64,000 nt of DNA from Acidobacteriota bacterium (GTDB taxonomy: Bacteria; Acidobacteriota; Holophagae; Thermotomaculales; Thermotomaculaceae). The DNA lies in NCBI GenBank assembly GCA_013151025.1, contig JAADJC010000061.1, positions 25,419-89,418 of the forward strand, read 5' to 3'. The position numbers and the translations under genes were made by a program. The notes beneath the pieces are model-generated. The model was given only the letters and a program-made list of their open reading frames with translations, did no database searches and was not told where the DNA came from. This document shows, piece after piece, positions 1,793 through 63,970 of this stretch. Position 1 is the stretch's first letter; each line of letters starts with the position of its first letter.

Positions 1793-1952
1793 AGAGTGGG
1801 AATCTTCCAATGATTGCCCATGGCCAACTCCCTGATTTCATACCCTCTTCCCATCCCAGGGAGACACACCCCGAAGTACGTTGAATCTTTTCTTTCCAGA
1901 ATCATGGATTGTGCTAAAATCAGGGAAATTCTTCTGAAGAAAGGAGTGGATT

Positions 1953-3383: not shown

Positions 3384-3427
3384 CTAACATCTAACATCTG
3401 ACATCTGACATCCGGCGCACTGCGCCG
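3384..3427 (-). repeat. Gene-end hairpin plus 4 tandem heptads
   Basis: CGGCGC-ACT-GCGCCG (3413-3427) lies 4 nt downstream of the pilT-like stop. In the transcription direction it is followed by GATGTCA GATGTCA GATGTTA GATGTTA (3384-3411). Confidence 0.8.
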
Positions 3428-3431
3428 CAAA

Positions 3432-4784
3432 CTATCCCAATCCTTTTGTTTTCAAGGTCTTTTTAAGATCATCGGGTTCCGTACTTCGGGCCAATGCATC
3501 CTGCGGGTTCACCAGTCCCTTTTCTATCAAAATCACAAGAGCGTCGTTCATCAATTGCATTCCCAGCACTTTCCCCGTCTGCATGAGAGAGGGTATCTGG
3601 AATGTTTTGCTCTCACGAATCAGATTGGCTACTGACGGCGTCACAATGAGAACTTCATAGGCTGCGATTCTGCCACCGCCTTTTTTCCTGCACAGAACTT
3701 GAGACACAACTCCCACCAATGAATCCGAAAGCATAACCCGAATCTGTGCCTGCTGATCCACCGGAAACTGATCCACAATCCGGTCCACTGTCCCCACAGC
3801 GGTAGCGGTGTGAAGGGTACCCAGAACCAGATGGCCGGTCACCGCCATTTCCACCGCAATAGCTATAGTCTCCAGATCCCGCATCTCACCCACAAGAATC
3901 ACATCCGGGTCCTCCCGGAGGGCTGAACGCAGTGATTTTTTGAAAGATTCGGTATGGGTATGGATCTCCCTCTGGTTCACATGGGATCTTTTATTTTCAT
4001 GGATAAATTCCAGCGGATCTTCAATGGTAATAATGTGTTTACTCTGGGTCTGGTTGATAAAATCCACTAAAGAAGCCAGTGTTGTTGATTTCCCACTGCC
4101 GGTGGGCCCGGTAACCAGAATCAACCCCTTGCTGAGGCTTGTCAATGCCACCACTTCTTTGGGCACACCCAGAGCCTCCAGAGAAAGTATTTCAGAAGGA
4201 ATGACACGAAAGACCACACATGCACCCCGGTGATCCCGGAATATGTTGGTCCGAAACCGCGCCAGCCCCGGCACTGAATAGGCAAGATCCACGTCATTTG
4301 TCTCCCTGAATTGCTCCAGAGCACTTTCCGGCACAATGGACTTCAATTGTTCAAGAAGTTCATTTTCAGTGACAGAACTGTATTCATTCAAAGTTTCAAT
4401 GTCTCCATCCAGACGGATAATCGGCCGACAACCGGAAGACAGGTGCAAATCAGATGCGCCTTTCTCCACAATTAATTTAAGGAGTTTCTTAATGTTGAAT
4501 TCTTTAATTTCCTGAGTAGATGGCTTTTCATATGTAAAAACAAGTTTTCCGCCTTGATTTGACATGCGAAAAACATCCGTGCCTATTTTTACAAAACCCC
4601 GGCCCTCTGAAATCGCCTGCCATTCGGAAAGAAGCATCCCGATTTCCTTTTCGCCAAGAGGTGCCCTGGTCAGGTTTCGAGTTCCCTCACGCACAATTGC
4701 AAACGGGATTTGACCTTTACTGACTTCCAGCCCTGTTCCTTTCAATTGCAGAACAGCTCCCAGCATTTTCTCAATATTTGTCAT
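3432..4784 (-). CDS. pilT: PilT-family type IV pilus retraction-type ATPase with a ~105-aa N-terminal extension
   Basis: ASDLHL, Walker A GPTGSGKST, Asp box, Walker B DVILVGEMRD, His box TGHLVLGTLHT. The start overlaps the upstream gene by 4 nt (ATGA). Confidence 0.85.
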   Translation of the reverse strand: MTNIEKMLGAVLQLKGTGLEVSKGQIPFAIVREGTRNLTRAPLGEKEIGMLLSEWQAISEGRGFVKIGTDVFRMSNQGGKLVFTYEKPSTQEIKEFNIKKLLKLIVEKGASDLHLSSGCRPIIRLDGDIETLNEYSSVTENELLEQLKSIVPESALEQFRETNDVDLAYSVPGLARFRTNIFRDHRGACVVFRVIPSEILSLEALGVPKEVVALTSLSKGLILVTGPTGSGKSTTLASLVDFINQTQSKHIITIEDPLEFIHENKRSHVNQREIHTHTESFKKSLRSALREDPDVILVGEMRDLETIAIAVEMAVTGHLVLGTLHTATAVGTVDRIVDQFPVDQQAQIRVMLSDSLVGVVSQVLCRKKGGGRIAAYEVLIVTPSVANLIRESKTFQIPSLMQTGKVLGMQLMNDALVILIEKGLVNPQDALARSTEPDDLKKTLKTKGLG

Positions 4785-10820: not shown

Positions 10821-11479
10821 TACATTTTTTTCATGTGAGCAAAGTTTACGAAAAGGGAAATCGAGCCCTCCATGAAGTCAATGTTTCCATTGGCAAGGGA
10901 GAGTTTGTCTTCCTGACCGGCCCCAGTGGCGCCGGCAAGACCACTTTTCTTAAACTCATTTTTCGGGAAGAACTCCCTTCCTATGGCCGGGTTGTGGCAA
11001 ATAACCAAAATACCATCGCACTGGGGAAACGCCGGATTCCCGATTTCAGAAAGAAAATCGGCGTCGTTTTCCAGGATTTCAAGCTCCTGGAAAACCGAAC
11101 CGTCTTTGAAAATATCGTTTTCATCTTGAATGTATTGGGGTATCCCGCATCTTTCCTACGGGACCGCGCCTTCTATGTCCTGAAACTTGTGGGCCTCCAA
11201 CACCGGTACGATGACTACCCCCGCCAGCTCTCCGGCGGAGAACAGCAACGAATTGCCATTGCCCGGGCCCTGGTCAATGAACCCCTCATTCTCCTGGCGG
11301 ATGAACCTACAGGAAATCTGGACCCCGATCTGTCCCTGGAAATTATGGCATTGTTTGAAAAAATCAACAGCCGGGGCACCACCGTTCTCATTGCCACCCA
11401 TGACCGGGAGATGATTAAACAGATGCGAAAACGAACCCTCTATCTGGATCATGGGCACCTTCAGGAGCACAGAAAATGA
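10817..11479 (+). CDS. ftsE: Cell division ABC ATPase FtsE
   Basis: Walker [10 protein letters not shown], signature LSGGEQQR, Walker [12 protein letters not shown]. 4-nt overlaps on both sides. Confidence 0.9.
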
Positions 11480-12363
11480 AACTATTTATTGATTTCGGAT
11501 TCTACATCCGGGAAGGCTGGGCCAACTTTACCCGTTCCAGAATGCTCAGTCTTTTTTCCATTCTCATCATCTCCATATCCATTGCAATCATCACATTGTT
11601 TTCCACAGTTTTTTTTAACGTGGATAACTACCTGAGAGAAATGGAAAACAACCCGGTGTATTCCATCTTTCTGACGCCGGACACCTCCGCCAAAGAAGGA
11701 AAAGACCTCGCCCTATACCTGGAAACATTGAAAGGCATATCTGATGTAAAACTGGTAATGCCTGACGAGAGCATGAAAAAACTTGCCCGCCGGTTCCCCC
11801 TTGCCGGAGAAATCCAGAAAACCTTAGAGGGAAATCCCCTCCCCATCAGCATCCGCCTTCGAATTGCCACACCCAGCGTTATCAAGGTGCGACAGGTGTT
11901 GAAACAATACAGTATCGTGGAAAGTATCTACTCCCCCCATTTCTTTCTCTCCCAGTTGAAATCATTATCTTCTGCCGTATCATTCTTCATTGCTCTCATC
12001 GCTGCCATACTGGTACTTGCCTCCGTTTTTACAATCTACAACGTAATTCGCATCACAATCCTCGCCCGTCAAAACGACATCGCAATCATGCAGCTTGTGG
12101 GTGCGGATATGAAATTCATCCGGGCACCATTCACTGTGGAAGGCACCCTCCAGGGCCTCTCCGGCGGCATACTCGGCGCCCTCTTCGGCAGCGGCCTCAT
12201 TTACATTATCAGGACCCACTATCTGGTCCATTTTCAGTATCTCCCTTTCCTGTCCCGTATCACCTCTCTGCCGCCCTCATACTTCGTCGGCATCATTCTC
12301 CTCTCCGTTGCCATGGGCATCTTCGGCAGTACTATGGCCGCCTCCCGCATCGACTACGTCTGA
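11476..12363 (+). CDS. ftsX: Cell division permease-like protein FtsX
   Basis: Follows ftsE. Four-TM FtsX topology with a periplasmic loop, and MQLVGA near TM2. Confidence 0.85.
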   Translation: MKLFIDFGFYIREGWANFTRSRMLSLFSILIISISIAIITLFSTVFFNVDNYLREMENNPVYSIFLTPDTSAKEGKDLALYLETLKGISDVKLVMPDESMKKLARRFPLAGEIQKTLEGNPLPISIRLRIATPSVIKVRQVLKQYSIVESIYSPHFFLSQLKSLSSAVSFFIALIAAILVLASVFTIYNVIRITILARQNDIAIMQLVGADMKFIRAPFTVEGTLQGLSGGILGALFGSGLIYIIRTHYLVHFQYLPFLSRITSLPPSYFVGIILLSVAMGIFGSTMAASRIDYV

Positions 12364-12410
12364 CGGCGCGTTGCGCCGAGTGTTGAATGTTAAATGTTAA
12401 ATGTTAAATG
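12364..12410 (+). repeat. Gene-end hairpin plus tandem heptads
   Basis: CGGCGC-GTT-GCGCCG starts on the nucleotide after the ftsX stop. It is followed by GTGTTGA then AATGTTA x3. Confidence 0.8.
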
Positions 12411-12543
12411 AAAGACAAATCAGAGACAGGGAACCAGAATTGAAGATTGCCGCTTTTCACTTTCCTTTTCCTTCTCCTCTCCCCCATTCATCACTTAACA
12501 CTCAAAATTTTACACTCGATGCTGCGCATTGTCCTGTCGTCCC

Positions 12544-12569
12544 TCAATTCGATTCGGAAATCGAATTGA
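12544..12569 (+). repeat. 11-bp perfect hairpin, copy 1 (TCAATTCGATT-CGGA-AATCGAATTGA)
   Basis: Paralogous to 34717-34742 with two compensatory base-pair changes. The CCC flank upstream and the A-run downstream are conserved. Confidence 0.8.
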
Positions 12570-12572
12570 AAA

Positions 12573-12598
12573 AATCAGGGACTTGGCCATTCCCCGCC
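12573..12598 (+). repeat. AATCAGGGA-loop-TCCCCGCC module
   Basis: AATCAGGGACTTGGCCATTCCCCGCC, near-identical to 53644-53667. Confidence 0.75.
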
Positions 12599-12605
12599 TT
12601 TTGAA

Positions 12606-12646
12606 CCATCCACCATTTACGATTCACTATCCACAAAGGCTATGCC
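12606..12646 (-). repeat. Heptad array (CCATCCA CCATTTA CGATTCA CTATCCA) plus weak GGC-TAT-GCC hairpin
   Basis: Paralogous to 53691-53726, which has 3 heptads. Inverted relative to the 12364-12410 unit. Confidence 0.6.
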
Positions 12647-16079: not shown

Positions 16080-16131
16080 GGTTGAGTGCCGGGAAAGATG
16101 TGAAAAAGCAGGGAACTTGTCATTCCCCACC
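16072..16131 (+). repeat. AAGGTTGAG(GTTGAG)T module fused to a GGGAA-CTTGTCA-TTCCC hairpin module
   Basis: Tandem GGTTGA x2 contains the TGA stop of the preceding gene. Homologous to 18823-18863 and to the reverse complement of 53581-53613. Confidence 0.7.
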
Positions 16132-16215
16132 TTTCGGAAAGCGGGATACAGGCACCTGGGAAGTTGCCAGTCCCCGCTTTCCGAGTTCCAAACTATCCAC
16201 GGCGCCTTTGCCGCC

Positions 16216-17529
16216 TTAGTAATTCCAGAGGAGAACACCGTAGTTGCCCACTGCGATCCACCGGGGGCCATAGATATCTGCTGCCACCGGATATCCCCTG
16301 TCCGCCACAGGGCCATCATCAATGAGATAACCTGTTGCGGCGTTGTAATGGTAGGTGGAGTAGCTGGTGCATACAATGAAGTTCCCTTCCTCAGACATTT
16401 TTGCTGTGAGAAAGTCCCCCAGCCCCATGCCGTCGTACTGAAAAATGTTGTTCAGAAAAATGCCGTCGGTACCCACCGCGATCCAGTCTCCGCTATCATT
16501 GATATCCACCACAACCATTTCCCCCGGTGCAGTGACAGGGTTGAAGCTCTGGTCATCGTTGTAGATGAGGTAATCATCCCCGGATGCCACATAGTCGGTG
16601 TAGTTGTTAATGGCGCAACTGTGATAGACAGCGGCGGCCTTGAGAACCTTTTTCCGTGTTTTGTGAGTCTGAAACCATGCCTTATACTGGCGATTTACAG
16701 TGTATTTCGCATTTTTCGGAGTTTGGGGAACCACAACCGGCACATCGCTTCCCGCAACGTTCACAGTCTTTGCACTTGCTTTTCTTGCCAACTTCGGGGT
16801 AATGTTCTTGGTCCCATTGGTCAGGCCGAGAAGGGTGTTGATTCCCCCGGTTGCGACAAAATCTCCATACCCGTTGATGTCGGTCCATACCGAATCGTTG
16901 GACACGGAAACCGGATCATAACTGGTCAACTGAACCACATTCTGGTCATCAATGTATCCGTAGAGAACCTGAAGGGAACCGGCCGCCACAAATTCATCAT
17001 ATTCGTTGAGGGAGCAGTGGGAAAATTCCCCGACATTATTTACATAGTCCAGAAAAAGCGGTTCAGTCGCCCCGGAACCGATATACACGCCGTCCTCGGA
17101 AGAAACCAGCCAGGTATCGTTGCTGTTGATTGCAACCGAGATGAATGTGCCATTCACATTGTCATAAACCTTTGTCAATGCCCCGCTGATGTCCCCGAAG
17201 TAGATTCCGTTTTCAAACGCCGCAATGAAATTGCCGTTGTCATTCAACGCGATTGCGCGGTCTGAATCCACAGAACCGGTGTTCATTGGGATTATGTTGA
17301 AATCCACCTGGTTTCCACTGCCAAAGGCAATGCCCTGGCTCCCCGTTGCTACCCATTCGCCATAACTGTCAATTGAAGCCCCGACATATGCCGAACCGTT
17401 CGACACGTCCCCGATCAAGTCATCATCTCCGATGTTGAGACCTACGTCCACGTAGCTGTTCGAAGAACAGGACAGTTGCAAGATTGTAAGAATCGCCGCA
17501 AACCCCATCAGAATGAATACTTTTTTCAT
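16216..17529 (-). CDS. Lipoprotein with ~9 degenerate beta-propeller-like repeats
   Basis: ATG 17529 has a GGGAGG SD. Lipobox LQLSC. Recurrent motif D/N-x-x-G-x-W/F-V/I-A-x-G-x-x-G-I (GEWVATGSQGIAFG, GDWIAVGTDGIFL, PRWIAVGNYGVLLW, etc.). Confidence 0.7.
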   Translation of the reverse strand: MKKVFILMGFAAILTILQLSCSSNSYVDVGLNIGDDDLIGDVSNGSAYVGASIDSYGEWVATGSQGIAFGSGNQVDFNIIPMNTGSVDSDRAIALNDNGNFIAAFENGIYFGDISGALTKVYDNVNGTFISVAINSNDTWLVSSEDGVYIGSGATEPLFLDYVNNVGEFSHCSLNEYDEFVAAGSLQVLYGYIDDQNVVQLTSYDPVSVSNDSVWTDINGYGDFVATGGINTLLGLTNGTKNITPKLARKASAKTVNVAGSDVPVVVPQTPKNAKYTVNRQYKAWFQTHKTRKKVLKAAAVYHSCAINNYTDYVASGDDYLIYNDDQSFNPVTAPGEMVVVDINDSGDWIAVGTDGIFLNNIFQYDGMGLGDFLTAKMSEEGNFIVCTSYSTYHYNAATGYLIDDGPVADRGYPVAADIYGPRWIAVGNYGVLLWNY

Positions 17530-17565
17530 GTTCCCTCCCTTAATCCTGTATTTCAATAAATTATT

Positions 17566-17594
17566 TTGCAATATCCGTTCCATGAAACTATACT
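17566..17594 (+). promoter_or_regulatory. Candidate sigma70-type promoter
   Basis: TTGCAA-N17-TATACT, 30 nt upstream of ATG 17624, with a GAGGTGAG SD in between. Confidence 0.45.
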
Positions 17595-18790: not shown

Positions 18791-18822
18791 AAAGAATGCA
18801 AGGTTAAGTAGAAGGCAAGATT

Positions 18823-18863
18823 AAGGTTGAGTCCGGATAAGATTCAGAAAAGGCGGGGAAAGA
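18823..18863 (+). repeat. AAGGTTGAGT module copy
   Basis: AAGGTTGAGTCCGGATAAGATTCAGAAAAGGCGGGGAA. By eye, roughly 80 percent identical to the reverse complement of 53581-53613. Confidence 0.7.
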
Positions 18864-18907: not shown

Positions 18908-18951
18908 ACAAATCACAAGTCACTATTCACAAATCACTGCAGCGTTGCTGC
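18908..18951 (-). repeat. Gene-end hairpin plus 4 heptads
   Basis: GCAGC-GTT-GCTGC (18939-18951) encodes the last codons of the TPR gene. AGTGATT TGTGAAT AGTGACT TGTGATT follow, and the stop TGA is part of the first heptad. Confidence 0.75.
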
Positions 18952-20268
18952 CTCCGGCAGCAACGCGTTTAATTTCCTGCAAGCTTTTTCATCTTTGCAT
19001 TGTTCACACAGCATTTTAAGCGCGTCTTTCTGCAGCGGATCAAGATAAAGCACCTTCTGTAAAGCGTCAATGGCTTCTTTTTTTGAACCGGATTTGAGTG
19101 CCTGGACCGCCTTTGCCATGTACAATTCCTTGATTTCCTTCAGGTCCAACGCTGCGTTTGTTCCCTGCTCTCCATTGCTGAACTGATAAAAGGACACAAT
19201 ATCCGCTTTCTCCTGATTTTTCCTTTTTTCTTCCGTTTCATCAGTGCAAAGGGGATGGGTACAATTACATTTTTCGCAACAGAAACGGGCAAGCAGTTTC
19301 GCCTCGCCTGTGATACGGAAAGAGGATATGTAGCTGCTCAGCGTATTCAGCGCATCACCCCATTTTTTCTGCCCTGCATCAACTACCGCACGGTCAAATA
19401 TGACCACCGGCTCTGTTTTCCCACTATCACCTGGAAGTGAGTCCAGAAATGCCGCAGCTTCCACTGGATGTTGCAACGCAACGAGACATCCCGCCACATT
19501 TACTACCGATGCCGTGTTTCGCCTGAACTTCAAGGTCTGAAGAAAGAAGATGAGGCCATCCGCATAGTTCTCAAGCTGCACACAGCACATTCCTGAAAGA
19601 AAAAGCCCATGGGAATCCGTCTCAGGGAGTCGTTTCAGGTATACAAGCGCCATTTCAAAGTGGCCGGTATCAAAGAGCAGGTTCCCCAGATTGCGGTTCA
19701 ACGATTCGTTTTCGGTCACCTTCCCGGCCAACTCGGCAATTTCTTTAAAATCACTGTTTACAACGGCCCGAAGCATCCCTCTGACATAGGCCTCAAACCG
19801 ATGTCCGGTGAAAGTTTGGGGATAGGGATATTTCCCACCGATTTCCTCCCGGATGAAAGGTGCAAGGTTGGCCGGAAAACCAGCCATTTCAACTGTACAC
19901 TTCCCTGTCTTTTGAGTCAGTTTATCTATTTCATACCGGGTAAATTCAATTAAAATCTTGTTCTCAGAAACTTTAAAACTGCCGGTCAACAGATTGTCCG
20001 CCTTCAGCTTCTGCGCAATAATAATACGGGTTGCCAGCGTCAGATTGCCTGTGTCCGGCACATCCATGCTGTCAACAATGTCCAGACGTTCCGCCAGTGG
20101 AACGCCGTTCAAGCTGTCTTCAAACAATGCCTCCAGCCCATAGCCCAACCATTCAACGGTACTGTCGGCAGAACGATTTTCAAAGGGGAATACAACCGTT
20201 TTCCCCTGCGCCTGCAAAAGAGAAGCCGTGAAAAACAACAGAATCGCAAAACTACTCGCTTTCTTCAT
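18934..20268 (-). CDS. Secreted TPR-repeat protein
   Basis: ATG 20268 gives the signal peptide MKKASSFAILLFFTASLLQAQG. TPR-like helices. Cys-rich patch CCEKCNCTHPLC. Confidence 0.65.
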   Translation of the reverse strand: MKKASSFAILLFFTASLLQAQGKTVVFPFENRSADSTVEWLGYGLEALFEDSLNGVPLAERLDIVDSMDVPDTGNLTLATRIIIAQKLKADNLLTGSFKVSENKILIEFTRYEIDKLTQKTGKCTVEMAGFPANLAPFIREEIGGKYPYPQTFTGHRFEAYVRGMLRAVVNSDFKEIAELAGKVTENESLNRNLGNLLFDTGHFEMALVYLKRLPETDSHGLFLSGMCCVQLENYADGLIFFLQTLKFRRNTASVVNVAGCLVALQHPVEAAAFLDSLPGDSGKTEPVVIFDRAVVDAGQKKWGDALNTLSSYISSFRITGEAKLLARFCCEKCNCTHPLCTDETEEKRKNQEKADIVSFYQFSNGEQGTNAALDLKEIKELYMAKAVQALKSGSKKEAIDALQKVLYLDPLQKDALKMLCEQCKDEKACRKLNALLPEAATLQ

Positions 20269-21193
20269 CCGTTGCGACCGTTCCAAAAATCATTTTCCCT
20301 GCCGGATTCTGCAATATACTGGTAATTTTTGTTTGAACTCGATCCCCGATATATTGTTCACCGCCGTCTATTACCACCATTGTGCCATCATCAAGATACC
20401 CAATGCCCTGATCGTCTTCCTTACCCTTTTTGATAATATGAATAGACATGGTTTCACCCGGCAAGGCAACCGGTTTCAGAGCATTGGCCAGTTCATTGAT
20501 ATTCAGAACCTCAATTTCCTCCAGTGAGGCTACCCGGTTCAACGTATAATCGTTGGTTACAATCTTCGCGTTCAGCTTCTTTGCCAGGGAGATGATTCGC
20601 TGATCCACGTCCATTTCCTGGGGAAAATCAATTTCACAGACCTTGAACAGGACGCTTTTCATATTCTGCAATTTTCGGATAAGTTCCAATGCGTGTGCAG
20701 CCCGTTGTTGTTTCAGTTCTTTTCCCGTTTCATAAATTCTTTGAATCTGTTTCAGTACAAAACGCGGTACGAGAATAGTTCCGTCCAGAAAACCGGTTTC
20801 CACAAGATCCAGAATCCGGCCATCCATTAAAATTGAAGCATCCAGAATTTTTTTACATTTTATATTATCAGGAGAATTCAGCAATCCGGGAAAAGCCTCT
20901 CTCGGCCCCGACGGCATCAACATGGCAGAAACAACCGCAAGATAACCCGCGCCAATCAGAATGAAATAACGATTCACCCCTGCAACACCTGACACGAGAA
21001 TCACTACCCAGGCCACAACGGCGAATACCAGCAGTGACATAAGAAATCCATTGATATTCTCCCTCATAAACCGTGAAAACAAGCAGTCTGATATTGCCAG
21101 CACTGCAATAAGGGTTACGGCAAAAACAAAATTTTTCGAAAATACCGAAAAAACCAACACACAAAGATAAAAAAATAACTTTAAATAAACCAT
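20252..21193 (-). CDS. Membrane-anchored PIN + TRAM domain protein (YacL-like)
   Basis: ATG 21193 has a GGAGG SD. Four N-terminal TM helices, a PIN-like core (ILDASILMDGRI...VPRFVL) and a C-terminal TRAM-like beta domain. Confidence 0.75.
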   Translation of the reverse strand: MVYLKLFFYLCVLVFSVFSKNFVFAVTLIAVLAISDCLFSRFMRENINGFLMSLLVFAVVAWVVILVSGVAGVNRYFILIGAGYLAVVSAMLMPSGPREAFPGLLNSPDNIKCKKILDASILMDGRILDLVETGFLDGTILVPRFVLKQIQRIYETGKELKQQRAAHALELIRKLQNMKSVLFKVCEIDFPQEMDVDQRIISLAKKLNAKIVTNDYTLNRVASLEEIEVLNINELANALKPVALPGETMSIHIIKKGKEDDQGIGYLDDGTMVVIDGGEQYIGDRVQTKITSILQNPAGKMIFGTVATDEESE

Positions 21194-22389: not shown

Positions 22390-22487
22390 GGAAGCGAATG
22401 GGGGCTGGTGTCTCCCCCGGTCTTCAAAACCGGTGGGCCTTTGCGGAAGTAAAGGTCGGTGGGTTCGATTCCCACACGCTTCCGCCA
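22390..22487 (+). tRNA. selC: tRNA-Sec (anticodon TCA), CCA encoded
   Basis: GGAAGCG.../...CGCTTCC-G-CCA acceptor. 6-bp D stem with a 4-nt TGGT loop. Anticodon loop CTTCAAA. Long variable arm (GGCCTTT...AAAGGTC). T arm GTGGG-TTCGATT-CCCAC. 98 nt. Confidence 0.85.
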
Positions 22488-22657: not shown

Positions 22658-22734
22658 TGGGGTGGGCGAGGAGGCTTGAACTCCCGACCACTGGAGCCAC
22701 AATCCAGTGCTCTACCAACTGAGCTACGCCCACC
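22658..22734 (-). tRNA. tRNA-His (GTG) with G-1
   Basis: The reverse complement is GGTGGGCGTAGCTCAGTTGGTAGAGC...CTGGATTGTGGCTCCAG...CGCCCACCCCA. Confidence 0.95.
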
Positions 22735-22752
22735 ACATGAGATGTCAAAGAA

Positions 22753-22829
<77 letters not shown>

Positions 22830-22847
22830 TCATGTCTTCGGGTCGAA

Positions 22848-22924
<77 letters not shown>

Positions 22925-34279: not shown

Positions 34280-34537
34280 ATGAACAAAGAAAAAACAAAC
34301 CTCGAAGAATTTGAAAAATTGAAAGAACAACCGGTCATCTTATTTCACGGCTTCTCCGGTGAACAACTCAACGCCCTGATTGACACACTGAAGCACTCCC
34401 CTGCGTTCGCCGGCAATATCATCATGGCCACTACAACCCCGACATCTGTCCAATGGCGCATAAAAGATCTTCTCCTTGAACTTTCAGAAGAACGTGCCGC
34501 TCTGAAAAAACTGAACCAAACGCGCGAAGACCAGTAG
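34280..34537 (+). CDS. Small DUF3783-like protein
   Basis: ILFHGFSGEQLNALIDTL...TTPTSVQWRIKDLLLELSEERAAL resembles the DUF3783 C-terminal pattern (recalled, not searched). Confidence 0.5.
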   Translation: MNKEKTNLEEFEKLKEQPVILFHGFSGEQLNALIDTLKHSPAFAGNIIMATTTPTSVQWRIKDLLLELSEERAALKKLNQTREDQ

Positions 34538-34560
34538 GGGCCGGCAGACTCGGATTCCCA

Positions 34561-34603
34561 CGGCGTATTGCGCCGGATGATAGATGTTGAGTGTAAGGTG
34601 GAA
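34561..34603 (+). repeat. Gene-end hairpin plus heptads
   Basis: CGGCGT-ATT-GCGCCG lies 23 nt after the stop, then GATGATA GATGTTG AGTGTAA GGTGGAA. Confidence 0.75.
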
Positions 34604-34656
34604 GAAAAATCGGAAAAATAAGAAAAGGATGTATCTTTTACATCTCTGGCATTTCT

Positions 34657-34701
34657 CATCTAACATCTTCCATCTACAATCTAACACCCCACCTTTGGTG
34701 G
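34657..34701 (-). repeat. Inverted partner: heptads plus CCACC-TTT-GGTGG hairpin
   Basis: CATCTAA CATCTTC CATCTAC AATCTAA then the hairpin at 34689-34701. Together with 34561-34603 it brackets a central GATGTA-TCTTT-TACATC hairpin (34628-34644). Confidence 0.7.
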
Positions 34702-34716
34702 CATGTCCGCCATCCC

Positions 34717-34742
34717 TCAATTCCGTTCAGAAACGGAATTGA
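34717..34742 (+). repeat. 11-bp perfect hairpin, copy 2 (TCAATTCCGTT-CAGA-AACGGAATTGA)
   Basis: See 12544-12569. Stem positions 8-9 are swapped together with their pairing partners. Confidence 0.8.
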
Positions 34743-34766
34743 AAAAACACCGGAAAGAAAAAGGAA

Positions 34767-34921: not shown

Positions 34922-34977
34922 CTTTTCTGACCTTTGTGGCCTTGTGACTTTGTGTTAAGTTCTGCTCTGCTTCTCTG
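34922..34977 (+). repeat. CTTTGTG-type octamer word array
   Basis: TTTTCTGACCTTTGTGG...CTTTGTGTTAA recurs as the reverse complement of 57901-57965 (identical blocks of 17 and 11 nt). Confidence 0.75.
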
Positions 34978-35134
34978 ATTCTCTCCCTCTGTGCCCTCTG
35001 TGTACTCTGCGGTGAAAATTCCTATCTTTTTTCCTCTTTCCCGACATCGCTGACTTTGTCTTATTGACTGGTGGAAACTATTCAACCACTTGCCCGTATA
35101 ATTTAATCGGATTTGAAAATTCCGGAGGGAGCCA

Positions 35135-50403: not shown

Positions 50404-50512
50404 TTTTTCTCCTCTTGTCAGCTTCCAAACTTCAAAATTCACCCACATTCTACAGGAGAAAAAGGTCAAAGGGAAGAAAGTGGGTATTATACGTGGGCAT
50501 CAGCTTGGAAAA

Positions 50513-50538
50513 GACGGGAAAATGACACATTCCCCGCC
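50513..50538 (+). repeat. GGGAA-AATGACACA-TTCCCCGCC hairpin module
   Basis: Same stem and 3' tail as the 12573, 16105 and 53644 copies. Confidence 0.7.
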
Positions 50539-50615: not shown

Positions 50616-52070
50616 TCAACGCTTCCAGAAAACCGGGGTGAACAACACCATGACGGTATAGATTTCAAGACGTCCTATCATCATGGCGAAACTGAGTACC
50701 CACTTGATCCAGTCCGGATAAAACCCGTAATTTTCCGCCGGACCGACCAGACCCAGACCCGGACCGATATTTCCGACCGTTGCCAGCGCCGTTGTCAGTG
50801 AGGTCAGAATGTCGTGTTCAGCTGATGCGACAAGAAGGGTTACGATCAAAACCAGAAAAACGTACAGGAAAAAGAATCCCGAAATGGCAAAGACGATGCT
50901 GTTTTTAACCGATCGGCCACTGAGTTTCAGCGTGAGGACGGCCCGTGGATGTACAAGTTGTTTCATTTCCTTAAAGCCCTGCTTGAAAAGGGTAACGATG
51001 CGGATAACCTTGATGCCGCCGCCTGTAGACCCGGAACAGCCCCCGATAAACATGAGAAAGACGAGAACGGTCTGGGACAGGAATGGCCATTTTTCGAAAT
51101 CGGTGGTGGAGTAGCCTGTAGTGGTCAGAATAGACGCAGACTGGAAGGCGGCATGGCTTACCGTTTCGGACAAAGTCTGAAACAATCCGCCCTTGAATAA
51201 ATCCAGGGTAATAATGATTGTAGCCACAAAGAAAATAAGAAGATACGCCTTCAGTTCACTATCCCTGAAAACAGATTTCCGAGGCCCTGTCAACAACTTG
51301 AAATGAAGAGCGAAGTTCATACCGGCGATGAGCATGAACACGGTGATGACTCCGTTGATATACAGTGAATGGTAGTAACCGATGCTGGTATTTTTCGGGG
51401 AAAAACCCCCCGTAGCAAGAGTACCGAAGGTGTGGGTGGTGGCGTCAAACAGGTTCATGCCGCCAAACAACAGGAGAACGATTTCCAGCAGGGTGAAGGC
51501 CATATACAGATACCAGAGAATCTTGGCGGTTTCCGTGATCCGTGGCGTCAGCCGATCCACCGATGGCCCCGGCGCCTCGGCCCGGATAAGCTGAAGACCG
51601 CCGATTCCCAGCAGTGGCAGTACCGCAACGGTGAGTACCACAATGCCCATGCCCCCCAGCCAATGGGTGAGAGACCGCCAGAACAGCAATGATTTCGGCA
51701 GCAATTCAATCCGGGTGAGGATTGAGGCGCCGGTGGTGGTAAAACCGGACATGGTTTCAAAGAAAGCGTCGGTGTACGTTGACATGCTTCCCGACAAGTA
51801 AAATGGCAGGGCGCCGAACGCGGCGGCAGCAAGCCAGCTCACGCTTACCAGCAAGTAGCCGTCCCTGGGAGTCAATTCCCGTACTTTCAGGTTCCGGGTT
51901 CCAACCAGCACCAAAATTGCCGACGCAGCCATGAAGGCAACCGGTGCAAGAAAGGCAATTATTGTCCGTGAGTTTTCCCCCGCCAATGCCATCATGGCGG
52001 GAATCAGCATGAACGCTGCAATAATGAGCACCAGCGCGGCGGTAATCCTGGCAACCAGCCGTAAATTCAT
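50616..52070 (-). CDS. trkH: Potassium uptake protein TrkH
   Basis: Polytopic, with repeated selectivity-filter-like TTTG/TGG segments. 4-nt overlap with trkA. Confidence 0.9.
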   Translation of the reverse strand: MNLRLVARITAALVLIIAAFMLIPAMMALAGENSRTIIAFLAPVAFMAASAILVLVGTRNLKVRELTPRDGYLLVSVSWLAAAAFGALPFYLSGSMSTYTDAFFETMSGFTTTGASILTRIELLPKSLLFWRSLTHWLGGMGIVVLTVAVLPLLGIGGLQLIRAEAPGPSVDRLTPRITETAKILWYLYMAFTLLEIVLLLFGGMNLFDATTHTFGTLATGGFSPKNTSIGYYHSLYINGVITVFMLIAGMNFALHFKLLTGPRKSVFRDSELKAYLLIFFVATIIITLDLFKGGLFQTLSETVSHAAFQSASILTTTGYSTTDFEKWPFLSQTVLVFLMFIGGCSGSTGGGIKVIRIVTLFKQGFKEMKQLVHPRAVLTLKLSGRSVKNSIVFAISGFFFLYVFLVLIVTLLVASAEHDILTSLTTALATVGNIGPGLGLVGPAENYGFYPDWIKWVLSFAMMIGRLEIYTVMVLFTPVFWKR

Positions 52071-53613: not shown

Positions 53614-53643
53614 TTCCCTTCAGGCTGGAGTAGAAGTAAGACA

Positions 53644-53667
53644 AATCAGGGAATTGGCCATTCCCCG
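53644..53667 (+). repeat. AATCAGGGAAT-TGGCC-ATTCCCCG hairpin module
   Basis: 6-bp stem GGGAAT/ATTCCC. It is preceded by AAGACAAATCAGGG, which also occurs (13 of 14 nt) at 12412-12425. Confidence 0.75.
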
Positions 53668-53690: not shown

Positions 53691-53726
53691 CCATCCACTA
53701 TTCACTATCCACTGCGGCAAAGCCGC
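53691..53726 (-). repeat. Gene-end hairpin plus 3 heptads
   Basis: GCGGC-AAA-GCCGC starts 1 nt after the DciA-like stop. It is followed in the transcription direction by AGTGGAT AGTGAAT AGTGGAT. Confidence 0.8.
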
Positions 53727-53727
53727 A

Positions 53728-54015
53728 TCACGCATCGCGTCGAAGTCGGACTTGAAGGCGGGATAATCGAAGGGGATAACGATTCAAGGCCCGAACAATG
53801 GTATCTGCTTCCGCACGAAACGCAGCAAAGTATTCTCTTGCCTCAATTTCCACTGTCAATGTACCCCCCACCAGACTGACCGGCTTTCCCCAACTGCATA
53901 CCGGCTCCGGTATTACACGGTTCCACATCATCTTGATGAATTCCAGGGGTGGACACCCCCATTTCAGAAGCAGTTCGGGAGAAATGGTCTTGAAGTATTT
54001 ATCCGTCACGCTCAA
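53728..54015 (-). CDS. DUF721 (DciA-like) protein
   Basis: W..V.....S....L..GTLTVEIE....F..F......I...LN pattern typical of DUF721 (recalled). 17-nt overlap with the upstream gene. Confidence 0.5.
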   Translation of the reverse strand: MSVTDKYFKTISPELLLKWGCPPLEFIKMMWNRVIPEPVCSWGKPVSLVGGTLTVEIEAREYFAAFRAEADTIVRALNRYPLRLSRLQVRLRRDA

Positions 54016-57900: not shown

Positions 57901-57965
57901 GAAGAAGAGAAGATCATTTAACACAAAGGCACGGAACCACAAAGGTCAGAAAAATAGGGGAAGAG
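57901..57965 (-). repeat. CTTTGTG-type word array (inverted copy of 34922-34977)
   Basis: The reverse complement reads TTTTCTGACCTTTGTGGTTCCGTGCCTTTGTGTTAA. Confidence 0.75.
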
Positions 57966-57984
57966 AAGTGATGAGTTCAAAAAA

Positions 57985-58006
57985 CACGGTAATGGCAAAC
58001 TCCGTG
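57985..58006 (-). repeat. Hairpin module copy with a covarying stem (CACGG-TAATGGCAAACT-CCGTG)
   Basis: Aligns to the reverse complement of the GGGAA...TTCCC module (AATGGCCAA loop and a ...GTGATT tail), but both stem arms are changed and still pair. Confidence 0.55.
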
Positions 58007-58157
58007 ATTCTTCTGCCGCCCACATTCACTCCCAACGCCCACTCTGCCAATTAAGTCTAAGTTTAAGTAAAGAACAATAGTTGACAGCTTACTCTCTTTC
58101 CGTGCTCAAACTTAAACTCAAACTCAACCTTGACTCCACTTGCATTCAAATTTTCCC

Positions 58158-58306: not shown

Positions 58307-58337
58307 CAAAAAAAAACCCGCCGTACGGCGGGTTTTT
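58307..58337. terminator. Bidirectional intrinsic terminator
   Basis: A-run, CCCGCC-GTAC-GGCGGG, T-run. It can serve tRNA-Met (+) and the Spy-like gene (-). Confidence 0.75.
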
Positions 58338-58358: not shown

Positions 58359-58889
58359 TTACCAGTTGTTTTGCATTCCCTGACGACCGCCTCTTTTCAT
58401 TCCGCGGTCCATTCTACTGCCATGATGATCCTTCATGTTCATGAACTGCTGGCGTTTGTCCTTTGCGATGTCCAGCAGTTTCTGGCGCTGGTCTTTTGTC
58501 AGCAGGTCGTGGAGTGCCTGAATTTTCTGAGTCATGAACTTCTCCACTTCCACCCGTTTCTGATCCCGCATTTTCTCCCTTTCAACCCGAATGGCTTCCG
58601 CATTGAAGGAATCAGAAACAAATTCATCCATACCTTGGTCCTGCCGGCCTTTCATGGCTTTCACCTGACTTTGCCAGTAGCTTTTAACCTCGGTTAGAAG
58701 TGCGTCCAATTTCTGGTTCTGGGTTTCGTTCAATCCCAGTTCCGGTCGAGCAGCTGCTACCAACCGAAAAAGCATTCCAGTTCGATTCTGCCGAATATTC
58801 GGCCGGTTCTGCCGGACACGTCCCTGGGCTGCCATCAGTGTCCCTGCCACCATTACGATTCCCAATACTGCAATAACTGTTCTTTTCAT
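58359..58889 (-). CDS. Periplasmic Spy/CpxP-family (LTxxQ) protein
   Basis: ATG 58889 has a GGGAGGAAAG SD. Signal peptide. Two LTxxQ-type motifs (LNETQNQKL, LTKDQRQKL). Basic/His-rich tail. Confidence 0.75.
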   Translation of the reverse strand: MKRTVIAVLGIVMVAGTLMAAQGRVRQNRPNIRQNRTGMLFRLVAAARPELGLNETQNQKLDALLTEVKSYWQSQVKAMKGRQDQGMDEFVSDSFNAEAIRVEREKMRDQKRVEVEKFMTQKIQALHDLLTKDQRQKLLDIAKDKRQQFMNMKDHHGSRMDRGMKRGGRQGMQNNW

Positions 58890-58970
58890 TCTTTCCTCCC
58901 TGTTGGCCACGGGGCCTTTTGTTTACATATATAAAATACGGGGAGAGTATGTCGCCACGGTTTCCGCCTT

Positions 58971-58990
58971 GTAACAATTTGTAACAATTT
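58971..58990. promoter_or_regulatory. Perfect tandem direct repeat GTAACAATTT x2 (GTAAC-N5-GTAAC)
   Basis: 82-101 nt upstream of the Spy/CpxP-like start. Resembles an OmpR-family (CpxR GTAAA-N5-GTAAA) site. Confidence 0.4.
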
Positions 58991-59009
58991 CACGCCTGAG
59001 AAGAAATAA

Positions 59010-59057
59010 TGGGTGATGGGTGATTTTTCTATCATTTAACATCCAGCGCAAAGCGCC
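59010..59057 (-). repeat. Gene-end hairpin plus heptad words
   Basis: GGCGC-TTT-GCGCT (minus strand, 59045-59057) lies 18 nt after the ftsZ stop. It is followed by GATGTTA AATGATA ... and TCACCCA x2. Confidence 0.65.
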
Positions 59058-59075
59058 GTCCAAGGGCACTTCCCC

Positions 59076-60395
59076 TCAATTCTTTTTGTCCAGATGACCC
59101 GTTTGAACGGCTTTTCTGAGAAACGCCGGGATTTTTCTCACCCTGTCAAGGTCGTCCGAGTTTACCGCCGCCGCAGATGGGGAATGTACGATTTCTTTGT
59201 ATTCATCCGTCTGGAGAAGACGGCTGACGATCCCGGAACAGGGATGTTCTTTGTCCACGCCCTCTGATGGCTCACTTTCCACCTTTATCGTAGGCTCCAG
59301 ATCATCAGATGTAATTTCGGGAACGCCACCTGAAATAGTCCCTTTTGAGAGGTATGTGTCCCGCATTGTACTCGCTCGTTTCATGTCCCGGGGCCCCTGG
59401 CCTTCAATCTTTCCGTAATCAAAACCGGTGGCAATGAGGGTCACACGTAATTTGTCACCGATGCTTTCATCTTCCACAGTACCTTTTATTATATGCACAT
59501 GCTCACCCAGCTCGTTGTTCAGGGTTTGAAGCAGCAAGCGGTTTTCGCCCACAGTCAACTGATGATCTCCGGTTCCTGCCGTTACGTTGACAATAACGCC
59601 CCTGGATTCCATCAGGGAGAAGTTGTCCAGCAGGGGGGATTGCAGGGCCGCTGTCAGCGCTTCCCGTGCCCTGTCCACACCGAAGGCCTCTCCCAATCCC
59701 ATCAGGGCAAAGCCCTTGAAACCGAAGATTGTGCGCATGTCGGCAAAGTCCACATTTTCCGTTCCGGGCACGAACACGATATCAACAATGCCTCTCAGCG
59801 CATTCTTCAATATGGTGTCGATTTCTTCATACGCCATTTTCCAGGGCGTATCATCGGGTAAAATGTCAAAGATTTTGTCGTTCTTAATGGTAATCATGGA
59901 ATCCACATGGTCAATTAACTGACTGTATCCTTCCACAAAATTTCTGAATCGGACATTTTTCTCAAATTCAAAAGGCTGGGTAACAATAGCGACAGTCAGT
60001 ATCCCCAGTTCACTTGCCAATCGTGCAATCACAGGAGCCGCGCCAGTTCCTGTTCCGCCACCGAGGCCTGCAGTGATGAATACCATATGTGCCCCTTCAA
60101 TTGCAGATCTGAGCTTGTCCATGTCTTCGATGGCAGATCGTTCCCCCATTTTGGGGTCCGAACCGGCACCGAGGCCCTCGGTCAGTCTCTCCCCAATCTG
60201 AATCTTAATCGGGGCATGGGAACTGATAAGGGACTGCAAATCGGTATTCACCGCAATGAATTCCACATGTTTCAAGTTGGATTCAATCATACGGTTCACG
60301 GCATTGCACCCGGCACCGCCCACACCAAATACCTTGATAATGGGCCGTGCCATCCTGTTTTCTTCAATCAGAATGGCGCTGTCTCTAATTGGCAT
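59076..60395 (-). CDS. ftsZ: Cell division GTPase FtsZ
   Basis: IKVFGVGGAGCNAV, the GGGTGTGAAPV tubulin signature, a long linker and a conserved C-terminal peptide (IPAFLRK). ATG 60353 is an alternative start. Confidence 0.95.
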   Translation of the reverse strand: MPIRDSAILIEENRMARPIIKVFGVGGAGCNAVNRMIESNLKHVEFIAVNTDLQSLISSHAPIKIQIGERLTEGLGAGSDPKMGERSAIEDMDKLRSAIEGAHMVFITAGLGGGTGTGAAPVIARLASELGILTVAIVTQPFEFEKNVRFRNFVEGYSQLIDHVDSMITIKNDKIFDILPDDTPWKMAYEEIDTILKNALRGIVDIVFVPGTENVDFADMRTIFGFKGFALMGLGEAFGVDRAREALTAALQSPLLDNFSLMESRGVIVNVTAGTGDHQLTVGENRLLLQTLNNELGEHVHIIKGTVEDESIGDKLRVTLIATGFDYGKIEGQGPRDMKRASTMRDTYLSKGTISGGVPEITSDDLEPTIKVESEPSEGVDKEHPCSGIVSRLLQTDEYKEIVHSPSAAAVNSDDLDRVRKIPAFLRKAVQTGHLDKKN

Positions 60396-61670: not shown

Positions 61671-62444
61671 TTACTTTGGTTTTACCACAATTTCCCGACG
61701 AAATGATAAATCAATATAATCTACATTATCATACCGTGATTTAATAAAATTCTCTACCCTTAAAAATTGTCTCACATTTTTAAACGAACCGAATGGGTCC
61801 ACATAGATTTTCCACGGAGTATCCCGAAGGTAACAAACCCACTTCTCGTTGCCCTTATGAACCACAAGTTCAGACAATCGGGTATAAAATGTTCCGTTAT
61901 CAAGCGTGCGGATTTTTTCAAGTTTATGCACAATAAATGGCAATTCTTTTTCATCACAGTCTATGATGGGGAAATTTCTATACGAAAAATCCGGGGTAAA
62001 GGGAGCAATGCGACTGCCTGTCCCGTCCACAATCCAGACATCTCCCTTTTGAGTACGATATAGTGCAACAGGCTGCTTCTCCCGTACCACAATGGTTACC
62101 CGGCTCCCGGGCAGAGCCTGAACGGTAACACTGTCTATCCAGGGGATGGCCTCGGCAGTTCTTTTAATTGTTTTTCTGTCCATATCCCAGTATGACTTGC
62201 CCAGATAAGGTGCCAGTGCCTGCTGCAATTCTGCAGAGTTATTGTAGTACACGTTCCGAATCTGAAATTCACGCACCCGGAAAATATCGGTAAAGTAGTA
62301 TTTCAAAGGCGGGAAAATCCACGCTGCAAGTATACCCAGCACAACCACACCCACAAGATACAGGGTGATACGGCCACCGTATTTCTTCAACATACGATGA
62401 GACCGCATTTTGAACCGGACAGTGGCGGGGCTCTTCCTTGTCAT
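61671..62444 (-). CDS. ftsQ: Cell division protein FtsQ (POTRA domain)
   Basis: Single N-terminal TM followed by a POTRA-like domain. Lies between murC and ftsA. Confidence 0.8.
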   Translation of the reverse strand: MTRKSPATVRFKMRSHRMLKKYGGRITLYLVGVVVLGILAAWIFPPLKYYFTDIFRVREFQIRNVYYNNSAELQQALAPYLGKSYWDMDRKTIKRTAEAIPWIDSVTVQALPGSRVTIVVREKQPVALYRTQKGDVWIVDGTGSRIAPFTPDFSYRNFPIIDCDEKELPFIVHKLEKIRTLDNGTFYTRLSELVVHKGNEKWVCYLRDTPWKIYVDPFGSFKNVRQFLRVENFIKSRYDNVDYIDLSFRREIVVKPK

Positions 62445-63849: not shown

Positions 63850-63853
63850 TTGT

Positions 63854-63870
63854 GCAAGTGCGAGTGCGAG
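63854..63870 (+). repeat. GCAAGTGCGAGTGCGAG 17-mer
   Basis: Identical to 22515-22531. Confidence 0.7.
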
Positions 63871-63930
63871 TCAGAAAAAAACCGGACTGCCTGCTCTCTC
63901 TCTTTACTTAAACTCAAACGCGCCTCCTCT

Positions 63931-63970
63931 TCACTCATCACTCATCACCCATCACGCGGCCTCAGGCCGC
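63931..63970 (-). repeat. Hairpin plus heptads (TCACTCA TCACTCA TCACCCA)
   Basis: GCGGCC-TCA-GGCCGC (63956-63970). On the minus strand it is followed by GTGATGG GTGATGA GTGATGA. Presumably the 3' end of the out-of-window gene upstream of murC. Confidence 0.75.

Follow-up and report, generated by a model that had tools for sequence, protein, structure and literature searches.

A stretch of 64,000 nucleotides (nt) from an Acidobacteriota genome (contig JAADJC010000061.1, positions 25,419 to 89,418; here called the window) carries eight or nine copies of a short element in which a GC-rich hairpin with a three-nt loop (module A) is followed on the same strand by tandem seven-nt words, or heptads (module B). 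This unit is part of a dispersed, recently amplified and rapidly turning-over mosaic repeat family, and its copies lie mostly just behind the stop codons of genes that point the same way. All eight loci listed in the initial annotation of the window were recovered, each with the hairpin first and the heptads next on the strand given there (Table 1); their common order is a GC stem of 5-6 bp, a 3-nt loop and then 2-5 tandem words with hardly any C and with T-G in constant phase. A descriptor scan (perfect stem of at least 5 bp, at least 80% GC, loop of 3-4 nt, then 21 nt with a period-7 identity of 70% or more) detected six sites in the window, where 100 dinucleotide-preserving shuffles gave 0.03 on average and never more than one, while Tandem Repeats Finder (TRF) independently placed period-7 arrays at 3384, 12381, 18908, 53693, 59009 and 63927. 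The stems had been described as perfect, which holds for six of the eight copies; those at 34561 (CGGCGT/GCGCCG) and 59044-59058 (CGGCGC/GCGCTG) have one G·T wobble each. The palindromic unit is 13-15 nt long, and all eight or nine copies are in non-coding DNA or overlap the end of a gene. Rfam covariance models gave no match at any element locus, either at gathering thresholds or at E ≤ 1.

Using Pfam, the flanking genes were identified as those for a T2SSE/PilT-like ATPase (3432-4784, -), FtsX (11476-12363, +), a TPR protein (18934-20286, -), a DUF3783 protein (34280-34537, +), FtsZ (59076-60395, -) and MurC (62441-63817, -); a 95-amino acid (aa) open reading frame (ORF) at 53728-54015, which had been called DciA-like, has no Pfam match at E ≤ 1e-3. 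The distances from co-oriented stop codons to the hairpin are given in Table 1. Six of the eight copies begin in the range from 18 nt inside to 23 nt beyond the stop of a co-oriented gene. Non-coding DNA makes up 7.3% of the window; with placement confined to it, the probability is 2.4e-4 that six or more of eight copies would lie no farther than 25 nt from a co-oriented stop. Of 32 copies in acidobacterial loci, 17 have a co-oriented and seven an anti-oriented gene upstream, and 11 of the 17 co-oriented copies begin within 40 nt of the stop. Between tandem genes there are six sense copies versus two antisense; seven copies lie between convergent genes and one between divergent genes. The placement at gene 3' ends, mostly in the sense direction, is thus as the initial annotation had it, and so is the use of one hairpin as the last codons of a gene, at 18939..18951 in the TPR gene, whose stop codon lies within the first heptad. 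The further claim that the element is always on the transcribed strand fails for two copies that lie between plus-strand genes: 34657(-), flanked by the DUF3783 gene and a HlyD-family gene, and the weak copy 12606(-), flanked by ftsX and a DUF2339 gene. Each of these faces a plus-strand copy in an inverted pair, 34561(+)/34657(-) and 12364(+)/12606(-), with heptad arrays that are mutually complementary within the pair; the folding z-scores of the two strands over 34555-34705 are -3.2 and -4.4. Inverted pairs also occur in four of the loci fetched from other genomes (L015, L017, L019 and L035).

A replication-driven orientation can be set aside. GC skew is negative over the whole window (-0.06 to -0.13) regardless of gene strand, yet copies occur on both strands and track their genes, and orientation is therefore tied to transcription, not to replication. 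The window represents one replichore, with a marked C excess on the plus strand.

The polarity of the two modules is without exception. Among 93 heptad arrays poor in C, taken from the window and the acidobacterial loci, the 5' edge carries a perfect GC triloop hairpin in 41 cases and the 3' edge in none. For a logo of the heptads, 96 units from 21 arrays were aligned in phase with the hairpin end. All 96 have a purine (R) at position 2, 94 have T at position 3 and 88 have G at position 4, corresponding to 1.1, 1.8 and 1.5 bits; positions 1, 5, 6 and 7 are variable. Mismatches within arrays number 24, 26 and 30 at positions 1, 5 and 6, against 2 and 8 at the T and the G (chi-square p=2e-7). 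The T and G columns of the logo are partly circular, some arrays having been gathered with a TG-containing pattern; in the window arrays, found by periodicity alone, TG is in phase in all full units but one. The R-T-G core is common to the otherwise sequence-unrelated subfamilies GATGTTA, AGTGRAT, GTGATGR and GTGAYTT, and its phase relative to the hairpin is fixed, with T-G at +3/+4 in most copies. Two other properties of the heptads were considered and dropped. A 7-nt period could supply stop codons in all three frames, and 11 of 28 arrays do close all three, about what column permutation predicts; CsrA-type GGA, Shine-Dalgarno-like GGTGAT and HutP-type UAG each occur in some subfamilies only and are no general property.

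FtsX homologues place the window within uncultured Acidobacteriota, the nearest named species being Thermotomaculum at 39% identity. One genome of each species was searched for CGGCGCNNNGCGCCG(RRTGNNN)x3, a pattern that leaves the three variable bases of each unit free to differ. Of the 45 stretches obtained, 25 (26 matches) come from a single metagenome-assembled genome (MAG) from Guaymas Basin, B50_G9, which has about 82% DNA identity with the window across the ftsX region. There even the diverged order of heptads is shared between copies (for example AATGTTG AGTGATA GGTGTTG AGTGCTA AATG), as are flanking modules, among them heptads (GTGATGR, GTGTTCW), hexamers (GCACTC, CCTACY) and words of the AAGGTTGAG type. 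Five B50_G9 cassettes were combined into a profile, which matched the window with E=1.5e-11, 1.6e-11, 4.4e-7 and weaker values, one of the matches running over model positions 1-115. Many of the B50_G9 matches (QMQE01; loci L008-L049) lie within a few hundred bases of contig ends, and the family appears to fragment short-read assemblies of these genomes. Further matches were found in two MAGs labelled only as Acidobacteria/Acidobacteriota and in Holophagae, Thermoanaerobaculia, Vicinamibacterales and Pyrinomonadaceae, with single loci in Gemmatimonadota, Opitutae, Terrimicrobiaceae and Prevotellaceae; about six matches in GC-rich genomes look like chance. Those in other phyla are true tandem heptads, (AGTGCCG)7, (AATGCGG)4, (AATGAGA)3 and (GGTGTCA)4, beginning 2, 2, 14 and 7 nt, respectively, after long ORFs, and three of these four arrays form face-to-face pairs between convergent genes. 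The stop-proximal layout (2-14 nt) is seen in Vicinamibacterales, Gemmatimonadota, Opitutae and Prevotellaceae.

Occupancy changes between relatives at 84-94% protein identity, in presence or absence, in heptad number and in the subfamily present. After pilT there is one copy with four heptads in the window, a tandem pair in L001 (94% FtsX identity), where the first copy has five heptads, and no copy in L003 (84% FtsX identity). The copy after ftsX is missing from L002, L003 and B50_G9; the L001 contig ends 13 nt past its ftsX stop codon. In the gap between the ftsW-like gene and murC there are 3.5 heptads in the window, five in L051 (91% FtsZ identity) and no copy in L003. The window copy after ftsZ is of the CGGCGC and GATGTTA type; in L050-L054 (90-93% FtsZ identity) the same place holds a different hairpin with GTGGATA-type heptads and a second, terminator-like hairpin (module D). 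After the 95-aa ORF, L050 has a decayed hairpin at the matching position, with the heptads absent. Variation in heptad number, which had been noted among paralogues of the window, thus extends to orthologous sites.

The element had also been taken as a self-contained unit of about 45 nt, and here the profile from the Guaymas MAG gave a different picture, as it aligns to window copies up to about 115 nt, spanning hairpin A, an A-rich spacer and a second hairpin with a U-tract; similarity past the heptads was also seen in an alignment of 140-nt stretches. The succession of A-rich spacer, second hairpin and T-rich tract is present in 53691(-), 12606(-), 34657(-) and the pilT copy of L001. Beyond the 12364 copy a tail at 12411-12453 is still alignable to the composite profile, and behind the 3384 copy a decayed spacer and second hairpin run on to about 3323. 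The second hairpin of 53636..53666(-) is homologous to module D of the Guaymas MAG (E=6.4e-10), and the decayed copy at 12568..12634(-), with its D hairpin and T-tract at 12568-12595, is a paralogue of the 53691 copy. The region 58307-58337 had been called the only classical terminator of the window; hairpins with T-tracts are in fact found also at 53636-53666(-), 12568-12595(-), 34612-34644(-), 50507-50536(-), 16109-16135(+) and 1817-1839(+). At the last three of these, D stands by itself behind other genes. Hairpin A is indeed without a U-tract, as first described, its tails being GAUGUUA-type heptads with 2-3 U per 7 nt; the GC stem-loop plus U-tract of an intrinsic terminator (in D also with an upstream A-tract) is found in module D and at 58308-58337. 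In 23 non-identical copies, D keeps one fold of A-tract, stem and U-tract. Its variation is mostly from G-C to G-U on the element strand, with 13 G·U versus 2 A·C cells at stem pairs 13-29 and 14-28, the two most variable, and therefore points to pairing at the RNA level; this G·U bias is the only strand-specific evidence of that kind. At 57957-58022(+), upstream of a tRNA-Met gene, there is a match to model positions 51-117 of the composite profile (spacer and D; E=6.3e-5) that has no hairpin-plus-heptad part.

From these features, we have middling confidence in a REP/BIME-like dispersed cassette that is transcribed as a 3' untranslated region (UTR) and acts at the RNA level. In its full form the sense strand would read stop codon, GC triloop hairpin A, three to five C-free heptads with the R-T-G core (B), A-rich spacer (C) and hairpin D with its U-tract, often with C-rich hexamers after D. 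The cassette would be transcribed with the upstream gene as its 3' UTR, and D, where present, would be an intrinsic terminator. Hairpin A, beside the stop codon, might be a stable roadblock, setting the 3' boundary of the mRNA and protecting it, as REP stem-loops do (PMC3333891), leaving the C-free heptads unpaired between the two hairpins. The number of heptads would drift through slippage or unequal recombination, and copies would spread and vanish fast, often coming to face each other in pairs like BIMEs. Of the functions first proposed, a 3'-end stability or processing element and a loading platform for an oligomeric protein, both are plausible as predictions.

Several observations weigh against this proposal. 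A same-strand match to the D profile within 150 nt after A and B was found for nine of 33 copies, and for the 33 a strict generic scan for hairpin plus T-tract picked out four with such a site on the same strand and 13 with one on the opposite strand, so that the full cassette is not the rule and the notion that A and B are always followed by a terminator had to be reduced to some copies. In the stem of hairpin A there are about six G·T versus three A·C (a partly manual count), favouring neither strand. A hairpin 0-4 nt after a stop codon would be melted by every terminating ribosome. The strong conservation of the R-T-G core is unexplained if the heptads are a passive spacer. No target-site duplication is visible when filled and empty sites are compared at ftsW-murC, pilT, ftsZ and the 95-aa ORF, and no transposase or other mobilising gene was found in the window and 54 fetched loci, where a tblastn search with an IS200 TnpA query gave a best E of 0.7 over about 0.4 Mb of fragments. 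Finally, transcription of the cassette, protection of its 3' end, the role of the heptads and the mode of spread are all things that we infer from the DNA.

One alternative, to which we give a small share of belief, is that the heptads form a phased platform, offering one R-U-G triplet every 7 nt to an oligomeric protein that binds RNA or single-stranded DNA beside the GC stem and, much as HutP and TRAP do, would control the folding of the stem or terminator or the access of exonucleases. In HutP sites XAG is followed by 4 nt, giving a 7-nt period, with three units per protein face and a flanking GC-rich terminator stem (PMC2425495). The heptads here likewise have a conserved triplet at fixed period beside a stem, with four variable positions, and the triplet-plus-spacer pattern has the appearance of TRAP and HutP sites and would not be expected from neutral slippage. 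The bias of mismatches to positions 1, 5 and 6, the core shared by unrelated subfamilies, the fixed phase to the hairpin and the 3-5 units per array all fit such a platform. Against it, the T and G columns are partly circular, as noted, some hairpin-adjacent heptads outside the lineage lack TG (TAAAGAA in Prevotellaceae), and the triplet is R-U-G rather than the XAG of HutP or the GAG/UAG of TRAP. HutP and TRAP act as attenuators in single-locus 5' leaders, whereas these are genome-wide 3' elements; no homologue is known in the lineage and no candidate protein is known, and no HutP or TRAP domain was found among the 20 window proteins scanned against Pfam.

An equally minor chance goes to selfish or neutral DNA of a REP/REPIN-like or MITE-like kind, without function, whose distribution would mark where insertion is tolerated or targeted and whose heptads would be slippage products beside a polymerase-stalling hairpin. 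The copy-number burst in one MAG, the presence or absence and subfamily replacement among close relatives, the tandem duplication in L001 and the insertion at the gene end 18934-18951, where the element supplies the stop, all speak for it; moreover, among long simple repeats, heptamers are reported to be the most abundant class in most of the prokaryotic genomes that carry them (Mrazek et al. 2007, as summarised in PMC4679880). However, the site downstream of ftsZ is filled by different subfamilies in different relatives, which looks like upkeep of some element there, the orientation follows genes and not replication, and a position-specific R-T-G constraint is not what neutral slippage would leave. 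The lack of a mobilising gene in the window and 54 loci also counts against it, as a weak test. MITEs differ in addition in that single copies here have no terminal inverted repeats (only pairs look inverted) and no target-site duplication.

It is rather doubtful, a shade more so than the last two, that a stop-abutting GC triloop hairpin with phased R-U-G heptads constitutes a widespread and previously undescribed class of bacterial 3'-UTR element, one that would decide what becomes of transcript 3' ends genome-wide, either through an oligomeric protein reading the heptads or as a pause array for RNA polymerase; the layout is seen in several classes of Acidobacteriota and at single loci of Gemmatimonadota, Verrucomicrobiota and Bacteroidota.

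Quite improbable is a non-canonical terminator or pause element, in which the GC hairpin would stabilise RNA polymerase pausing at repeated U-G steps and so slow or release it with no need of a U-tract. The elemental pause consensus is Y(-1)G(+1), which the U-G steps resemble, and the sense orientation, the hairpin-first polarity, the T-G at +3/+4 and +10/+11 past the stem and the small number of canonical terminators (34 found versus 24.5 expected in the first 20 kb) would suit it. Yet one copy separates the ftsW-like gene from murC within the dcw cluster, a place at which strong termination would do harm, hairpins 0-4 nt past a stop would be masked by the terminating ribosome, and the G at -10 shows only slight enrichment (36 of 96 units have G at position 1). 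According to PMC4824070, a terminator sited a few bp past a gene is almost completely repressed.

A SECIS-like role of UGA plus hairpin is ruled out, TAA and TAG stops being used as well and read-through of ftsX adding only nine codons; no SECIS-like element was found among the UGA-plus-hairpin sites of the window. The organism probably makes selenoproteins, since a tRNA-Sec gene is present at 22390-22487(+), adjoining a tRNA-His, tRNA-Arg and tRNA-Pro cluster at 22658-22924(-).

The initial annotation knew of no described family with this layout, which is too strong, as REP/BIME elements (PMC3333891) and the heptamers of Xanthomonas and Nostoc (PMC4692102) share most of it. REP/BIMEs are extragenic, GC-rich, high-copy palindromes that form mosaics and inverted pairs with linkers at gene 3' ends, within transcripts; they vary between strains and have documented roles as mRNA stabilisers, terminators and insulators (PMC3333891). 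The present elements resemble them as many-copy extragenic GC palindromes (8-9 in the window, 26 matches in B50_G9) and in forming mosaics and inverted pairs in both the window and its relatives. They differ in that the unit is shorter than a typical REP of 20-40 nt, with a shorter (5-6 bp), perfect stem and a strict 3-nt loop, and in the tandem heptads that follow, which REPs lack. REP palindromes also have at their foot a conserved GTAG-type tetranucleotide used by RAYT, their cognate Y1 transposase (TnpA-REP), whose gene the repeats flank. No conserved foot is present here, the bases 5' of hairpin A being TCTGA, GTTTG, GTAAG, ATGAG, CCCCG and others, no RAYT/TnpA(REP) gene was found in the window and 54 loci, and the host phylum is different.

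Tandem heptamers are also known as GGGAATC in Xanthomonas and GGGGA(C/T)T in Nostoc, the latter presumably the cyanobacterial STRR sequences. Like the present ones, they come in about four units, are intergenic, lie near the upstream ORF and form convergent pairs; 89-93% are intergenic, at a mean of 28 nt from the upstream ORF and far closer to it than to the downstream one, some run over the stop codon, the length of the arrays is not conserved among related species, and no function is established (PMC4692102). Their G-tract units are explained by G-quadruplexes, whereas the R-T-G units are mostly incapable of these; quadruplex formation can be dismissed in the window, where no array has a GGG tract per unit. 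In Xanthomonas, moreover, sense and antisense are about equally common, and no adjacent GC hairpin is described for either genus, the supplementary tables of PMC4692102 giving the repeats without flanks. The TAACTGA repeats of marine Beggiatoaceae, cyanobacteria and some Bacteroidetes are also intergenic TG-containing heptamers, of 2-6 units and with a patchy spread across phyla; they lie just upstream of start codons, not after stops (PMC4679880), and consist of one fixed heptamer rather than several with a common core, no adjacent hairpin being reported. The elements described here are thus dispersed intergenic hairpin-plus-heptamer repeats that belong to neither the REP/BIME nor the quadruplex repeats.

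Their main interest lies in the hairpin-to-heptad polarity, the R-T-G core and a layout that recurs right after stops in several phyla. The lineage offers a heptamer variant that G-quadruplexes do not explain, with a fixed polarity to hairpin and gene and triplet-plus-spacer conservation. If a binding protein or a polymerase pause code reads it, 3'-end control in phyla that have been little studied would gain a new layer, and the excess of heptamer repeats behind bacterial genes an explanation other than quadruplexes; if it has no such function, it is still a clear REP/BIME-like mosaic outside Proteobacteria, and one that appears to break metagenomic assemblies.

Table 1. Modules of the repeat family in the window, in order of position
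Position	Strand	Feature	Context or support
1817-1839	+	D-only site	
3384..3412	-	Module B: GATGTCA x2 GATGTTA x2	Profile model positions 1-115, E=2.6e-4
3413..3427	-	Module A: CGGCGC-AGT-GCGCCG	4 nt after T2SSE/PilT-like ATPase gene stop
12364..12378	+	Module A: CGGCGC-GTT-GCGCCG, 6-bp perfect stem, 3-nt loop	0 nt after ftsX stop
12379..12410	+	Module B: AGTGTTG AATGTTA x3 AATG	nhmmer match 12364-12432, E=1.5e-11
12606-12634	-	Decayed antisense copy: GTGGATA GTGAATC GTAAATG GTGGATG	Profile E=4.4e-7
16109-16135	+	D-only site	
16201..16215	-	Degenerate hairpin GGCGGC-AAA-GGCGCC, one GTGGATA heptad	Directly 3' of stop of gene 16216-17583
18908..18938	-	Module B: AGTGATT TGTGAAT AGTGACT TGTGATT	TGA stop of TPR gene inside first heptad
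18939..18951	-	Module A: GCAGC-AAC-GCTGC	Last codons of TPR gene 18934-20286 (stop to hairpin -18 nt)
34561..34604	+	A+B: CGGCGT-ATT-GCGCCG (one G·T wobble), four diverged heptads	23 nt after DUF3783 stop
34612..34644	-	Terminator-like hairpin GATGTA-AAAGA-TACATC, then CTTTTCTTATTTTTCC	Downstream of 34657(-) heptads
34657..34701	-	A+B: CCACC-AAA-GGTGG, 4.5 heptads	No minus-strand gene upstream; inverted partner of 34561(+)
50507..50536	-	Stand-alone D-type hairpin and T-tract	After gene 50616-52070
53636..53666	-	Module D: GGGAAT-GGCCA-ATTCCC, then TGATTTGTCTTAC; terminator-like	z=-2.7
53691..53712	-	Module B: GTGGATA GTGAATA GTGGATG	TRF; profile match
53713..53727	-	Module A: (T)GCGGC-TTT-GCCGC(A)	0 nt after stop of 95-aa ORF 53728-54015
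59009-59022		Inverted heptads CACCCAT x2	After ftsZ copy
59029..59058	-	Short A+B: CGGCGC-TTT-GCGCTG (one G·T wobble), two heptads	17 nt after ftsZ stop
63929..63970	-	A+B: GCGGCC-TGA-GGCCGC, GTGATGG GTGATGA x2 GTGAAG	1 nt after ftsW-like stop (gene runs off window)

Other repeats surround these copies. A long hairpin module, GGAAAGCGGGATACAGGCACCTGGGAAGTTGCCAGTCCCCGCTTTCC, lies at 16136-16182(+) between two convergent genes; five occurrences of the related motif GCGGYGYTGCCAGTCCCC were counted in the fetched loci, and the hairpin is a further member of the mosaic repertoire. Additional short tandem repeats occupy the same intergenic spacers, at 18798-18831(+), 63852-63870(-), 34932-35009(+) and 58105-58127, and comprise AAGGTTAAG/AAGGCAAG words, CTCGCA hexamers, CTTTGTGA, CTCTGATT and CTCAAA units. 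The first two of these, the AAGGTTAAG/AAGGCAAG words and the CTCGCA hexamers, are also modules in the Guaymas MAG, and the intergenic DNA of the lineage is largely made of such short repeat words. The heptads of the 63929 copy, inside the dcw cluster, are able to pair with the CTCGCA hexamers at 63852-63870.

A direct repeat, TTGTTACAAATTGTTACAA, at 58969-58987(-) lies upstream of an LTXXQ-family gene (58359-58910). L003 and L050 carry it in nearly identical form, with divergence in the spacer around it, and it probably serves that gene as an operator or promoter element. Two similar perfect hairpins, CAATTCGATTCGGAAATCGAATTG at 12520-12560(+) and CAATTCCGTTCAGAAACGGAATTG at 34718-34745(+), are each followed by a run of A, and each stands beside an antisense copy of the element in one of two long spacers between tandem genes.

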